From Terriglobia bacterium (lineage in GTDB: Bacteria > Acidobacteriota > Terriglobia > Terriglobales > Acidobacteriaceae): a stretch of 32,000 nucleotides of DNA. The notes below the pieces were generated by a model. The model ran no database searches. It was not told the origin of the DNA and saw only the letters and a program-made list of their open reading frames with translations. The translations under genes and the position numbers were made by a program. The DNA is taken from the NCBI GenBank assembly GCA_963840665.1, contig CAWIZO010000005.1, positions 200,820 to 232,819 on the forward strand, in the 5' to 3' direction. Each line of letters starts with the position of its first letter. Position 1 is the stretch's first letter. Positions 1,152-6,253 of the stretch are shown in pieces.

Positions 1152-3675
1152 CTATCCGTTGAGGACTTCGCGAACCTTGCGGGAAAGCATTTGCAGGGTG
1201 AAGGGTTTCTGCAGGAAAGCGGTGCCAGAGTCGAGCACGCCTTGGTGGACGATGGCATCTTCGGTGTATCCGGAGAGATAGAGAACTTTGGTCTGAGGAT
1301 GCGTTTGCGCCAAATGCTTGGCGAGTTCGCGGCCGCTCATGCCCGGCATGACAACGTCAGTCACAAGCATGTGAATCGATCCGGTGTAAGAGGCTGCGAT
1401 TTCGAGCGCCTTTTGCCCCTCGTCGGCTTCAAGAACGTTGTAGCCGCGGGCAGCGAGAGTTTCGCGCACGAGTTGCGCGGACGGACTCTTCGTCTTCCAC
1501 GAGCAAGACCGTTTCGGATCCACGCTAGGAGAGTTTTGGCGGCTTGCGATTGGTTAATGGCTCGGCGGCGTCTTCCACGCGCGGGAAAATAGATGCGGAA
1601 GGTGGTGCCCTGTCCGATTTCGCTCTGGGCGAACACATAGCCGCCGCTTTGCTTCACGATGCCGTAGACGGTGGAGAGGCCGAGTCCCGTGCCCTTGCCT
1701 TTTTCCTTGGTCGTAAAGAATGGCTCGAAAATGCGGGACTGAGTTTCCTTGTCCATGCCCTGCCCGTTGTCGGAGATGGCGAGCATGACGTAGGGACCGG
1801 GCTGAATATAGCTGTATTCGCGCCGCCAGTCATCGTCGAGATTCACGTTCGCGGTCTGGATGGTGATCTTGCCGCCGTTGGGCATGGCGTCTTTGGAATT
1901 GACGACCAGATTCATGATGACTTGTTCGATTTGTCCGGCATCGGCGCGGGTGCGGCCGAGGTGCGGCCGCAGGCTTGGTCACGAGCTCGATATTTTCGCC
2001 GATCAGCGGCCGCAGCAACCGCTCTATGTCGGCCACGATGGCGTTCATGTCGACGACTTTCAGTTCGAGCAGTTGTTTGCGGCTGAAGGCGAGCAGCTGA
2101 CGCGTCAGTGTGGTGGCGCGGTCGGCGGCCTGCTGAATCGCTTCGATCTTGGGATACATGCGGATTCGACTGGTCGGTGTTCTCCAGCAGGACTTCGGTG
2201 TATCCGCTAACGACCATTAGGAGATTGTTGAAGTCGTGCGCGACGCCGCCGGCCAGCCGTCCGACGGCTTCCATTTTCTGGGCCTGGCGGAACTGCTCTT
2301 CGAGAACGCGGCGCTCGGTGACGTCTTCGGCGATGACTTCGAGGACTTCGTCGGTTTCGCCGGGTGTACTGACGACGCGGCCGCTCAGGCGGACGGTGAT
2401 GGCGTTGCCATCTTTTTTTTTCCAGCGAACTTCGACGCTGTCGAGGCGAGACGCCACGCTGGAATTCTCCCATGAGGCGGGTCATCTCATCGGGATCGAG
2501 AAAGACGTCGGTTCGGGGAGCGAGAGCAAGAACTGTCTTCGGCGCTGGCGTATCCGAGCATGGCGATCAGCGCCGGGATTCACGTCGAGAAACTTGCCTT
2601 CGAGCGTGGAGCGGTATATGCCATACACCGCGCTTTGAACGAGGGACCGGTAGCGGGCTTCGGAGCGGGTAAGGGCTTCTTCATGACGCTTGTGTTCGAT
2701 AGCGCTCGCGACTTGCTGCGAGACGAACATCAGAATCTCTTTATCTTTGTCACGGAAACGGACCGTCTGGGTCGTAACTCTGCAGCACCAGCACGCCAAT
2801 GGTGTGATTGCTGACTTTGAGGGGGACGCCCATCCAATCGACGGAAGGGGCGCCGATGAGTTCGACTTCATCTTTGACGACAAGATTTTCGAAGACTTCC
2901 GGAGTGCAGAGGAGCGGGTCTGCCGGTGCGAAGAACGTACTCGGTGAGCCCTCGGCCGAGCTTCTTCGGCGTGGGCGTGGGATCTTGTTCGTCGACAAAG
3001 TAGGGAAAACTGAGTAACTGGCGTTGAGGGATCGTAGAGAGCGATGTAGAAGTTTCGGGCATACATCAATTCGCCGACAATGGCGTGGATGGATGCGTAA
3101 AAGTGTTGCAGGTCGGCGGCCGAGCTGGTTCTTTCTGCGATGCGGTAGAGGGCGGAGCTAAGGGTCTCGGCCTTCTTCTGCTCGGTGATGTCGCGGTAGA
3201 GAACGTAGGAAGCAACTTTTTGTCCGGCGATGATGAGGGGCGCGGCCGCGAGGAAGACGTCGAGCAGCGAGCCATCCTTCTTTCGTCGCCGGGTCTCAAT
3301 GGAAACTTTCTGTCCCTGGCTGAGGCGCTCGCCGATCCAGCGGGTTTCGGCCGCGCGATCGGCTGGGACGATGAGTTCGTCGATGCGCCGGCCGACGGAT
3401 TCCTCCGCGGCGAATCCGAACATGCGGATGAATTCTGCGTTTACGCGCAGAATTTCATATTGATTGACAATGCTGACGGCTTCTGGAGCGCATTCGACTA
3501 AGATCTTCGAGATAGGCTTTGTGGGCTTCGGCTTTCGCTTGTCTGGAGGATCGACTTCAGGGTCGGCTTCGTGGGCGCGGGAGAGCGCCGGAGTTCCTCG
3601 CTCCAAGGCTTCCTTCAACAATTTCGCGCGCACAAGGTCAGCGGACTGCGCTGGCCGGGTGAACTTGTCACCCAT
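1152..3675 (-). pseudogene. Hybrid sensor histidine kinase/response regulator (PAS-GAF-PAS-HisKA-HATPase-REC), multiply frameshifted
   Basis: Minus ORF fragments 2482..3675, 2868..3062, 2750..2998, 1912..2457, 1830..2159, 1361..1915 and 1152..1523 read consecutively as one protein. It has a PAS domain (VNAEFIRMFGF), a GAF domain split over three frames (NFYIALYDPST / LLSFPYFVDEQD / VDWMGVPLKVSNHTIGVLVLQSY), a second PAS, HisKA ([12 protein letters not shown]), HATPase ([24 protein letters not shown]) and a receiver domain (ETVLLVEDEE, LVTDVVMPGMSG, LQKPF). Joining the fragments needs about ten 1-nt frame corrections plus read-through of a TAG at 1525-1527. Confidence 0.8.
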
Positions 3676-3793: not shown

Positions 3794-3834
3794 AAAAAGG
3801 AATCGGGATGCGGACCCGCCAGAGTCCGCATCCC
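3794..3834 (-). terminator. Terminator-like hairpin on the minus strand (11-bp perfect stem, 8-nt loop, U5 six nt downstream)
   Basis: GGGATGCGGAC (3805-3815) is perfectly complementary to GTCCGCATCCC (3824-3834). On the minus strand the stem is followed by GAUUCCUUUUUG (A-run 3794-3798 on plus). The 6-nt spacer before the U tract is non-canonical, so confidence is moderate. Confidence 0.4.
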
Positions 3835-3978
3835 TCGTCGTCTACACAGGTTGGAACAGCGGAATTAATTTCGCAGAAGGGCGAGGGAAGTCCAATCGAA
3901 AGAATGAATGCAATGGATTGCTGGAAGCGGGGAAAGATGCGTGCAGAAATAAAGGATCCCGAGGTGATGTTTCGCTCA

Positions 3979-4094
3979 TTCGTCTCGGCCAGTAGCTCGC
4001 GTTAGACCCTTGCTGACCTGCTCTCGTCCCATCCCTTGCGGGTTACGACGCGCGATCTCGCTTGGGCTCCGGGCTCACCGCCAACCGGATAAAC
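3979..4094. repeat. Tandem repeat unit 1 (core)
   Basis: Aligns with 4142-4252 at roughly 70% identity by eye. Shared blocks are TTCG.CTCG.CCAG, TAGACCCTTGCT (4003-4014), CTTGCG, GAT.TCGCT and CCAACCGG..AAAC. The differences are not spaced in threes. Confidence 0.65.
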
Positions 4095-4141
4095 CAGCGT
4101 AACGCCTCGGGATCCTATCTTGCCTTCAACAGGTCTTCTTG

Positions 4142-4252
4142 TTCGCCTCGACCAGCACTTTGCTATAGACCCTTGCTCACCGCCCCTCCATCATCTTGCG
4201 ATGTGGAGAGTGATTTCGCTCGAGCCCCGGACGCCGTACCAACCGGGAAAAC
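4142..4252. repeat. Tandem repeat unit 2 (core)
   Basis: Second copy, offset ~160 nt from unit 1. It contains the identical TAGACCCTTGCT at 4166-4177 and CCAACCGG at 4239-4246. Confidence 0.65.
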
Positions 4253-4738
4253 TTCAGAAGGTGTCAAAGAACGAGTTTGTTGTACTCCTTTTATTTTTGG
4301 AGTCAATAAAAACTGCGCGACTGTATCTGCTTACGATGCAATCGAGTGCAGGCGGTTCACAGGGGGGTGAACCGGAAATTGTGCAGTGGGATTGATGGAG
4401 TGGGAAAACGGTTTGGGGACGAATTGATTTTGGCTGGATTCTTGGTTTGGGAATTTGCTGAGGTTGTCGGCACGGGATATTAGGAGATTGTGAAAATCAT
4501 GGGAAAAAGGGCTGTGGGAGCGGAGTTTCCGGTGAGGGTTAGTGGCGTCTTAAGCTCGCCCTTAGTTTCGGCTAACGGCGGCTTGCCTCTCGGGGTTAGC
4601 GCCTGGTTCGCTGCGCGACTCGGTTCTGGCTGGCGCAGATAGGCTTCTAGTTTGTCTTCGTGGCGAGACGCGGGCGAGGGCGCCCGCGCCACATTGCTGG
4701 GAGTACAATGCCGGGTTCCGGTCATAGGAGGAAGAGGC

Positions 4739-6253
4739 GTGGGCCTGGTGGCTCGATGGGTTGTCCTGGTGGCTTTGACGGCGTCGTTTGCGAGTGCGCA
4801 GAATTCTGCCGAGCAACGGACGGCGAGGTACATGGAGTCGATCCGGCAGCAGCCGCCCCTTCTGTTGGCTTTCTTGCGAGGCATGCCGAAAGGCGGCGAT
4901 CTGCACAATCACCTGGCGGGAGCGGTATACGCGGAGAGTCTGATCGACTATGCCGCAGACAATGGGATGTGCGTAGATCGCACCACCGCGTTCGTGATCG
5001 CGCCGCCTTGCGATTCGTCGTGCGAGAGATTCACCAGCAAGCCGAGGGCGAGCTGCGCGTATGGAGATCAGGTTCTTTACAACTCTCTGATCGATGCCTG
5101 GTCGATGCGGAACTTCAAAACCGAGGATGAGTCGGGTCACGACCATTTCTTCGCGACCTTCGACAAGTTCTTCCCAGCGATGATCAATCATAACGGGGAT
5201 GCGATTGCGGAAGCAGCGGCGCGCGCTGCCGAGGATCATGTGCAATACATGGAACTCATGCATACGGCGGATGGGAACGCGGCGGCGCAATTGGGGGCTA
5301 AAACCGGGTGGGATGACGACCTGGGGAAGTTGCGGCAGAAGTTGGTCGATGGCGGCATGGCTGAAGTTGTGGCGGAGACTCGGGCGCAATTGAACTTGGA
5401 CGAAATGCGCATGCGTTCGGTGCTGCGATGCGGGGCGAAGAATGAAGACGCCGGGTGCAGAGTTACGGTTCGGTATCTGTATCAAGTGCTTCGCGGATTG
5501 CCGAAGGAGCAGGTGTTCGCTCAGATGGTGCTGGGATTTGAGCTGGCAAAGAGCGATCCGCGGTTCGTGGGCTTGAACCTGGTGATGGCGGAGGATTGGT
5601 ATACGCCGATGCATGATTTCGACCTGCACATGAAGATGCTGGACTATCTTCACGGCGTGGATCCGAAGGTCCACATCGCTCTGCACGCCGGGGAACTGGC
5701 AATGGGACTCGTACCTCCCGAGGGATTGCGTTTTCATATTCGCGAGTCGATCGAGCGCGGGCATGCCGAGAGGATCGGGCATGGCGTGGATGTGATGAAT
5801 GAACACGATGCACTGCCGTTGTTGACAGAGATGGCGCAGCGGCGGGTGCTGGTCGAGATCTGCCTGACTTCGAATGACGTGATTCTGGGAGTGCGAGGGA
5901 AGGATCATCCTTTATCGTCGTACCGGAAATTTGGCGTGCCGGTGGCGTTGGCAACGGATGATGAAGGCGTGTCGCGGATGGATTTGACGCACGAGTATGT
6001 GCGGGCGGTTGAGGCCTATGGGTTGTCGTATGCGGATTTGAAAGAGATGGCGAGAGAGAGTCTGGAACACAGTTTCTTGCCCGGTCTCAGTCTGTGGGCC
6101 GACTCGAGGCCTTTTCGCATGGGTGGAGCGTGCGCGGCCGGCGGAGCTTCGAGTTCTTGCAAGAAATTTCTGAGTGCGAATGAGCGGGCGCGCGTGCAGT
6201 GGAAGTTGGAAGAGGCGTTTGCGGAGTTCGAGAAGGGCGTGGCGAGCAGGTAG
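4739..6253 (+). CDS. Adenosine deaminase family protein, long form with N-terminal signal peptide
   Basis: Part of ORF 4652..6253. ADA-fold motifs are present (GGDLHNHLAGAVY, HAGE, GHGV, LTSN, ATDDEGVSR). I place the start at GTG 4739, 7-8 nt after AGGAGG (4726-4731). That gives MGLVARWVVLVALTASFASA-QNS, a Sec-type signal peptide with an ASA cleavage motif. Confidence 0.8.
   Translation: MGLVARWVVLVALTASFASAQNSAEQRTARYMESIRQQPPLLLAFLRGMPKGGDLHNHLAGAVYAESLIDYAADNGMCVDRTTAFVIAPPCDSSCERFTSKPRASCAYGDQVLYNSLIDAWSMRNFKTEDESGHDHFFATFDKFFPAMINHNGDAIAEAAARAAEDHVQYMELMHTADGNAAAQLGAKTGWDDDLGKLRQKLVDGGMAEVVAETRAQLNLDEMRMRSVLRCGAKNEDAGCRVTVRYLYQVLRGLPKEQVFAQMVLGFELAKSDPRFVGLNLVMAEDWYTPMHDFDLHMKMLDYLHGVDPKVHIALHAGELAMGLVPPEGLRFHIRESIERGHAERIGHGVDVMNEHDALPLLTEMAQRRVLVEICLTSNDVILGVRGKDHPLSSYRKFGVPVALATDDEGVSRMDLTHEYVRAVEAYGLSYADLKEMARESLEHSFLPGLSLWADSRPFRMGGACAAGGASSSCKKFLSANERARVQWKLEEAFAEFEKGVASR

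Follow-up and report, generated by a model that had tools for sequence, protein, structure and literature searches.

A new RNA family of two paralogous rods, probably encoded by a stand-alone gene, in a clade of Terriglobales

What does a long intergenic gap encode when no coding sequence can be recognized in it? The question is raised by a 32,000-nucleotide stretch of DNA from a Terriglobia bacterium (contig CAWIZO010000005.1; the whole stretch analysed is called the window below), in which a PAS-domain open reading frame (ORF; 2482-3675, minus strand) lies on one side of such a gap and an adenosine-deaminase-like ORF (4739-6253, plus strand) on the other. A reading of the letters alone (the original prediction) had placed in this gap an unassigned structured RNA, transcribed from the minus strand under its own promoter and built of two tandem units. 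This claim is borne out by at least 120 homologous loci, by covariation among them and by 0 Rfam matches. We conclude that the element is very probably a stand-alone structured non-coding RNA (ncRNA) gene.

The tandem organization can be seen in the window itself as a diverged direct repeat, in which 3979-4025 aligns with 4142-4188 at 74% identity and 4054-4094 with 4212-4252 at 71%. The pairwise column identity of the two units is 73%, and the spacings of the two blocks (163 and 158 nt) imply a 5-nt indel between them. The conserved block that had been singled out, the 12-mer TAGACCCTTGCT, has exact copies at 4003-4014 and 4166-4177 and none elsewhere in the 32 kb; its chance expectation is 0.09 matches, and two copies were obtained in 0/100 shuffles. 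Tandem Repeats Finder did not call the repeat in the window because its copies are too diverged. Compared with shuffled sequence, the minus strand folds with z = -3.2 and the plus strand with z = -1.5.

We searched for homologues with a 31-nt pattern in the minus-strand sense, AGCAAGGGTCTA-N10-CTGGNCGAG, taken from the block common to both units. It matched at least 120 loci in a species-representative genome collection and, likewise, at least 120 metagenome contigs; locus counts given below, such as 85/110, 114 loci or ~117 assemblies, are among the matches listed. The metagenome-assembled genomes (MAGs) of the listed loci are labelled Terriglobales, Candidatus Sulfotelmatobacter, Candidatus Acidoferrum or 'uncultured Acidobacteriaceae', with the exception of two labelled only 'Acidobacteriota' or 'Acidobacteria bacterium' and of one (L098) labelled Candidatus Binatia, which is probably a mis-binned contig. 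Several of the MAGs are named SPRUCE, palsa or bog and apparently come from the SPRUCE and Stordalen Mire sites. We take the RNA to be confined to one clade of the Terriglobales (Acidobacteriota).

We next made a covariance model of the first unit, domain A, and searched it against the window and the loci. In the window it identifies domain A at 4274-4116 (174 bits, E = 1e-40) and, directly adjoining it, domain B at 4115-3951 (67.7 bits, E = 7e-14); almost without exception, a complete locus carries a single domain A (150-183 bits) followed by a single abutting domain B (40-70 bits). This search found no further A-B copies in the 32-kb window or in the 8-kb loci, so that the dispersed copies which would have spoken against the original prediction are absent from the sequences searched. 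The 120 loci listed come from ~117 assemblies, only three of which contribute two. In these three MAGs the two loci are on different contigs (L033 and L050, L076 and L080, L039 and L120) and could represent genuine second copies, mixed strains or errors of binning. Across species, A-type units group together and B-type units likewise; the duplication is therefore ancient, with both copies retained. The tandem duplication of the original prediction thus stands, but as two separate conserved paralogues rather than as a local event.

The absence of coding character also held up. Six-frame stop analysis of 65 homologues found no conserved ORF inside the RNA, with stops in every frame (~3-4 per frame per homologue). 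The A-to-B spacing across homologues is 160-168 nt and not a multiple of 3, and Pfam gave no match for the small ORFs within the gap.

To describe the fold we used RNAalifold on MAFFT alignments, which gives one long irregular hairpin for each domain; the single-sequence minimum-energy fold of the window yields the same two rods. Each domain begins with helices P1-P4, which lead to a central internal loop and then to P5; beyond small internal loops, the rod ends in a variable distal hairpin with a GNRA loop as its cap. In the window these elements are placed as follows:

4274-4116, minus strand: domain A, one long irregular hairpin of ~160 nt
4268-4263 with 4130-4125, minus strand: domain A, helix P1
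4260-4256 with 4139-4135, minus strand: domain A, helix P2
4252-4249 with 4144-4141, minus strand: domain A, helix P3
4247-4236 with 4158-4146, minus strand: domain A, helix P4, with four consecutive G-U pairs
4227-4222 with 4172-4167, minus strand: domain A, helix P5; the central internal loop lies between P4 and P5
4214-4179, minus strand: domain A, variable distal hairpin with a GCAA loop at 4199-4196
4115-3951, minus strand: domain B, paralogue of A with the same architecture
4115-4105 with 3965-3955, minus strand: domain B, closing helix, identical to an inverted repeat found in the window
4089-4078 with 3995-3983, minus strand: domain B, helix P4
4056-4016, minus strand: domain B, distal hairpin with a GCAA loop at 4039-4036

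Covariation among the homologues is strong. In 149 distinct domain sequences, standard pairs make up 96.3% of cells, compared with 82.1% when shuffled and 37-50% when partners are slid; changes on both sides occur in 23 of 45 pairs, and the observed measures were reached in 0/500 shuffles. Independently of any model, 31 diverse full-length sequences were aligned; 106 pairs are predicted from that alignment, 37 of them with compensatory changes. Compensatory substitutions that go beyond both the shuffled and the slid controls mark the element as a structured RNA. The closing helices of the two domains are unrelated in sequence (UUUGAC/GUCGAA in A, CCCGAGG/CCUCGGG in B) and yet both are kept, and that of domain B covaries (C-G 21 versus U-A 9 in the 31-sequence alignment, TA 83 versus CG 80 in 165 sequences). 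Pairwise covariation in the 165 sequences revealed no pseudoknots or inter-domain pairs; only nested helices stand out.

The hairpins proposed from the single sequence fared differently. The first (4050-4025 and 4208-4186, with a GCAA loop on the minus strand) covaries strongly across homologues. The second, a local CCGG/CCGG hairpin with a 12-nt loop, could be formed but is invariant, and G-to-A mutants break the local pairing. In these same mutants the long-range partner has changed from C to U, giving A-U (3 sequences for domain A, 4/31 for domain B), a compensation seen at pair 34/184 (domain A) and pair 208/321 (domain B, 31-sequence alignment). The strand therefore pairs long-range in P4, and the local hairpin, rejected as the actual fold, could be a folding intermediate or an alternative state. 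Two additional helices, proposed to work on the minus strand only by virtue of G-U pairs, have no compensatory change, and 104/149 sequences are unpaired at one pair and 68/149 at another.

Conservation peaks inside helices and leaves few conserved unpaired stretches. Two helical segments are shared by both domains and do not vary in any species: CCGGUUGG/CUGGYCGAG, which contains four G-U pairs in tandem, and GCYC-AA-GC/GC-AA-GGGUCU; the conserved helical segments, including the weak tandem G-U pairs, are invariant and not covarying. The central loop measures ~8 by 9 nt with two internal pairs, and the loops of A and B are unlike each other, each being conserved across species. The type of GNRA loop on the distal tips varies between GCAA, GAAA, GCGA and GUAA. 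In L207:8787-8691, L034:803-945 and L241:2066-2129, inserts of ~60-140 nt replace the tip of the domain A distal hairpin; the tip is therefore an expansion site outside the conserved core. We had also considered a likeness of CGGUUGG and AUCACCUC to the 3' end of 16S rRNA and dropped it, as most homologues read ACCACCUC, leaving a 6-mer.

Three features argue for the minus-strand sense: the loops are GNRA only in this sense, on the plus strand the invariant G-U pairs would turn into A-C mismatches, and the conserved promoter sits on the minus strand. The promoter and the other elements bordering the RNA are:

4386-4320, minus strand: conserved upstream block of ~70 bp, about -113 to -40 from the predicted start
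4386-4381, minus strand: upstream block motif CTGCAC
4373-4354, minus strand: upstream block motif GGTTCAC-N6-GTGAACC
4351-4339, minus strand: upstream block motif CTGCACTCGATTG
4306-4279, minus strand: sigma-70-type promoter, with -35 TTGACT (4306-4301), a 16-nt AT-rich spacer and -10 TACAAC (4284-4279)
3942-3954, minus strand: U-rich tail CCUUUAUUUCUG, directly 3' of the domain B closing helix
3834-3794, minus strand: downstream hairpin of 13 pairs (3834-3805) and then T5, found by a terminator scan

The TTGACT-N16-TACAAC of the original prediction is present at 4306-4279 with family conservation >90%. Its family form is TTGACT-N16-TAnAAn; across 64-114 homologous loci, conservation reaches at least 90% at TTGAC and at the T and A of the -10. 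A simple consensus promoter scan of the window missed it, as its -10 matches TATAAT poorly. Transcription is predicted to start near 4273. Farther upstream, conservation sets in abruptly at the upstream block (114 loci), whose family consensus is CTGCAC ... GTCAC-N6-GTGGAC ... CTGCACTCGATTGAAAA. Two CTGCAC repeats, 35 nt apart, flank the imperfect palindrome GTCAC-N6-GTGGAC, which is the perfect GGTTCAC-N6-GTGAACC in the window; a 24-nt motif of the block occurs once in the window with 0 expected. RNAalifold found no covariation in the upstream block on either strand; it is therefore the sequence that is conserved rather than a structure, and we read the block as regulatory DNA, likely a transcription-factor site. 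By eye, we take its spacing to be unlike the sigma-54 or CRP/FNR consensus.

At the other end, conservation falls to background after the domain B closing helix (11-12 bp, GC-rich) and the tail UCUUAAUUUUU; the family consensus at the position of the CCUUUAUUUCUG of the window is CCUCGGGACUCUUAAUUUUU, with a T frequency of 0.81-0.96 over five positions. A GC-rich stem and a U tract are thus found where conservation stops, as in an intrinsic terminator, and they likely form both the terminator and the RNA 3' end, although a terminator consensus scan of the window did not call them. The predicted RNA is ~330 nt long and runs from about 4273 to about 3944. A longer transcript of ~480 nt ending at 3794 had been proposed; we favour the shorter one because conservation stops at about 3944. 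The hairpin and T5 on which the longer transcript relied are present at 3834-3794. They are placed outside the family, in an unconserved stretch between the conserved RNA end and the PAS gene, and hence not in the RNA; they may act as a second terminator that catches read-through, or they may be unrelated to the RNA.

Several loci vary this arrangement. L056:7274-7050 (minus strand) is a natural single-domain variant with promoter and domain A intact and domain B missing; the 3' strand of domain A runs straight into the usual tail (CGGAACUCUUUAUUUUUU), and the tail is followed by about 8 copies of an 8-nt microsatellite, CTCTTAGC. L022 has a (CAGTTCTT)n microsatellite immediately 3' of the terminator. 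L078:5916-6959 consists of 4.9 tandem copies, 94% identical, of a 213-bp unit comprising the 3' third of domain B, the U tail and ~140 nt downstream, and is either a real expansion or an assembly artefact.

Signs of transcription come from chimeric contigs. The 31-nt pattern matches five IMG/VR contigs (L121-L125), in each case at most 80 nt from the contig end. All five are AT-rich and dominated by long viral-type ORFs. Pfam identifies an RNA-dependent RNA polymerase (RdRp) in L121, L122, L124 and L125 and has no match in L123. L122, which has helicase and 3C protease as well as RdRp, is picorna-like. In the first or last ~130 nt of each of the five contigs, a different piece of the RNA is joined to viral sequence unrelated to it, so that they are most likely chimeric metatranscriptome assemblies and not cases of viral capture of the RNA. 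A full-length nhmmer profile recovered many metagenome contigs of 1-2 kb joining part of the RNA to other sequence. Rfam identified the partner in seven of these (1-1.8 kb) as bacterial LSU rRNA (L181, L140), eukaryotic SSU and LSU rRNA (L197, L127), RNase P RNA (L244) or tmRNA (L135, L151). Such chimeras are expected of assemblies from RNA-derived libraries and therefore link the RNA with the most abundant stable RNAs. The polarity of the RNA is that of its partner in 6/7 contigs with an Rfam partner and in 5/5 viral contigs (relative to the viral coding strand), or 11/12 in all, for which our binomial estimate is about 0.003. This agreement supports the minus-strand sense, and the chimeras indicate, indirectly and from assembled sequence, an abundant minus-strand transcript, in keeping with the strand originally proposed. 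The junctions are scattered over model positions 15-90 and 68-323, at boundaries of invariant and variable sequence. We rejected them as a map of RNA ends or of a processing site between A and B, for they match assembly-graph branch points of mixed strains.

The RNA matches no known family, as the original prediction had judged by eye. The 4227 covariance models of Rfam 15, among them those for 6S, RNase P, tmRNA, the signal recognition particle (SRP) RNA, riboswitches, Acido-1, Acido-Lenti-1 and nadA, gave 0 matches at the gathering threshold in the whole window. No match overlapped the element at E <= 10 in searches of the 1.2-kb gap and of 361 nt, or the RNA at E <= 1 in five homologous loci. 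ARAGORN found 0 tRNA or tmRNA genes in the window. Literature searches by the core sequence and by the ncRNAs of these taxa did not find a description of the family.

The original prediction had left the choice between a stand-alone ncRNA and a tandem-domain leader. Only the first survives comparison of the loci. The nearest downstream gene is convergent, on the opposite strand, in 85/110 loci, and clustering by sequence divides the nearest flanking ORFs on either side (~211 in total) into 104 clusters. Among the downstream genes, the most frequent Pfam families (carboxyl transferase, He_PIG, AcrB, DUF5131 and DUF2961) each occur in at most 12/110 loci and have no common theme. Because the flanking genes are unrelated across genomes and mostly convergent, the RNA is not the leader of a neighbouring gene. 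In the window that neighbour is the PAS-domain ORF. Its start had correctly been taken as the edge of the gap, but the kinase label it had been given is unsupported, since Pfam detects PAS matches only (residues ~59-167 of 397) and a kinase or transmitter domain is absent at E <= 0.01.

How might such an RNA work? In our best explanation, to which, taking gene and mechanism together, we assign a probability of roughly 0.65, a stable and abundant RNA of ~330 nt is made from its own stand-alone gene and acts through proteins in trans. A sigma-70-type promoter, under control of the conserved ~70-bp region, would drive minus-strand transcription, which would terminate at the domain B closing helix and U tract. 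The RNA would then act in trans as a protein scaffold or decoy, as 6S, Ms1, Y or CsrB-type RNAs do, with domains A and B presenting two copies of one invariant helical core and their diverged central loops conferring distinct roles. The helical segments are constant rather than covarying, which suggests sequence-specific recognition, and two similar surfaces on one RNA would suit either one dimeric partner or a pair of partners. The distal tips are free to vary and to take inserts while the core helices are invariant, a hint of recognition by protein or by tertiary contacts. Taken by itself, the scaffold or decoy mechanism is plausible but somewhat short of even odds.

Several observations weigh against this explanation. 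A candidate partner protein is not linked to the RNA by gene neighbourhood in the 110 loci. The terminator stem is atypical in enclosing a 140-nt domain, and the 5' and 3' ends of the RNA are placed by conservation only. The pattern used to collect homologues fixes 20 nt in one domain, which inflates the apparent conservation there. P4 and P5 face competition from the local CCGG/CCGG pairing, itself conserved. Finally, the invariance of the helices could equally result from RNA-RNA tertiary contacts, ligand binding or a conformational switch.

This last point leads to the rival that survives best, an RNA working without a dedicated protein as a trans ligand sensor, a ribozyme or an RNA-only assembly resembling OLE, ROOL, GOLLD or raiA, with its two domains forming a pseudo-dimer. 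The extreme sequence conservation of the internal loops and weak G-U helices would suit such a function, as would the keeping of GNRA loops on otherwise variable tips, and the glycine and NAD+-I riboswitches also use tandem homologous domains. Precedent is provided by the RNA-only complexes recently shown for other large orphan ncRNAs (PMC12286853). We nevertheless consider this rival unlikely: the 165 sequences have no pseudoknot or inter-domain covariation, the varying GNRA type argues against a specific receptor, and no metabolic gene association in the 110 loci points to a ligand.

Improbable, too, is a trans-acting base-pairing small RNA (sRNA), or a pair of sibling sRNAs from one transcript, binding to mRNAs through conserved single-stranded stretches such as the A-B linker GGCAGGAUAGAG or the central loops. 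Tandem sibling sRNAs are a known bacterial theme, and the RNA has its own promoter and terminator, with an upstream control region that suggests regulated expression. However, an RNA of ~330 nt with ~106 paired positions and few conserved unpaired stretches is unlike seed-plus-terminator sRNAs, and its conservation is highest inside helices. As siblings the two units would be incomplete, domain A having no terminator and domain B no promoter, and co-assembly with rRNA, tmRNA and RNase P RNA suggests instead a stable, housekeeping-like RNA.

A cis-regulatory 5' leader of the PAS-domain gene (2482-3675, minus strand), in the manner of a tandem riboswitch, is very improbable. In its favour, the RNA of the window shares its strand with the gene and lies about 270 nt from it, and the U tract there is imperfect, with the second hairpin and T5 lying between the two. 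Elsewhere the pairing dissolves: a PAS-protein homologue follows the RNA in only one other listed locus (L106), and the L043 match (tblastn) is ~3.9 kb downstream on the opposite strand. The same-strand, functionally coherent downstream genes that a cis-leader calls for were not found among the 110 loci, where opposite orientation in 85, the 104 flanking ORF clusters and the unrelated Pfam families all speak against a leader, and conservation stops at a terminator-like helix and U tract.

It is hardly credible that the element is a miniature inverted-repeat transposable element (MITE) or repetitive extragenic palindrome (REP), an integration target with duplicated ends or a functionless decaying duplication, for although the tandem repeat, the 213-bp unit repeated 4.9 times in L078 and the matches at the ends of IMG/VR 'viral' contigs would suit such an origin, there is nearly always one locus per genome in ~117 assemblies, no other copy in the 32-kb window, and A and B persist across species as two different paralogues that show compensatory changes. 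The integration-site idea, taken from the L078 repeats and the 'viral' contig ends, was discarded: none of the 110 downstream genes gave a Pfam match to an integrase, and the 'viral' contigs are chimeras with RNA viruses.

In acidic soils and peatlands, Terriglobales (Sulfotelmatobacter-like lineages included) rank with the most abundant bacteria. Most of them are uncultured, which probably explains why the RNA was missed by isolate-genome surveys. An RNA of such size and conservation usually marks a basic cellular function, and here the invariant blocks are kept across >100 species. For RNA biologists the family comes with an alignment, a structure model and predictions of promoter and ends, and its design of two ancient paralogous rods with invariant tandem G-U helices is unusual. 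It is also a candidate marker transcript for these soil and peat Acidobacteria in metatranscriptomes. Tentatively, and with rather more doubt than confidence, one may go further and see in it a novel class of housekeeping-grade RNA of a standing comparable to raiA or OLE, whose two rods would form a pseudo-symmetric particle with its own biochemical role as a ribonucleoprotein, an RNA-only assembly or a sensor.

Comparison with known systems shows likenesses to several groups, but the RNA is a member of none of them. Like CsrB/RsmZ-type RNAs, which are stand-alone protein-sequestering RNAs, it has repeated units offering several copies of a binding site; theirs are many GGA hairpins of ~20 nt, whereas the new RNA has only two units, of 160 nt each, and a single GGA-like stretch, located in its linker. 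Glycine riboswitches contain tandem homologous domains. The NAD+-I (nadA) riboswitch is acidobacterial and has two tandem homologous domains as well (PMC6859854, PMC10702441). This RNA shares with both the two homologous structured domains in tandem, but they are cis-acting 5' leaders of specific genes, the nadA domains being small bulged stem-loops, whereas the new RNA has domains of 160 nt and its own terminator, and neither a conserved downstream gene nor an Rfam match.

Acido-1 (RF01686) and Acido-Lenti-1 (RF01687) are orphan ncRNAs confined to Acidobacteria, with no particular gene association (PMC2864571). They are orphan and acidobacterial like this RNA, but differ from it in sequence and structure, and neither model matches it. 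One locus, L014, has two Acido-Lenti-1 copies (RF01687) on the minus strand, at 2178-2223 (48.8 bits, above gathering) and, weaker, at 2244-2276 (26.1 bits). They are separate elements, the first of them 46 nt long, ~240-340 nt downstream of the new RNA and on the opposite strand, and their proximity to it is probably coincidental.

6S RNA (RF00013; 6S-Flavo, RF01685) and mycobacterial Ms1, which act by binding RNA polymerase, are likewise stand-alone, abundant, stable and usually single-copy. In topology, which is all that we compared, they resemble the new RNA in forming rods that run from a closing stem through a central internal loop to a terminal stem-loop. The differences are that here two tandem paralogous rods share a ~330-nt transcript and that the central loop is smaller. 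The 6S models gave no match to the RNA at E <= 10, and no conserved neighbour was found among its flanking genes, the ygfA (5-formyltetrahydrofolate cyclo-ligase) neighbourhood typical of 6S not having been specifically sought.

With raiA, OLE, ROOL and GOLLD the new RNA has no homology, and it belongs to another phylum, is smaller than OLE, ROOL and GOLLD and has a simple, unbranched two-rod topology. It resembles them in being conserved, intricately folded and abundant, with a function unknown or, for some, recently emerging, and in having been found by comparative genomics. The RNA family is new; the orphan structured ncRNA, as a phenomenon, is already familiar.

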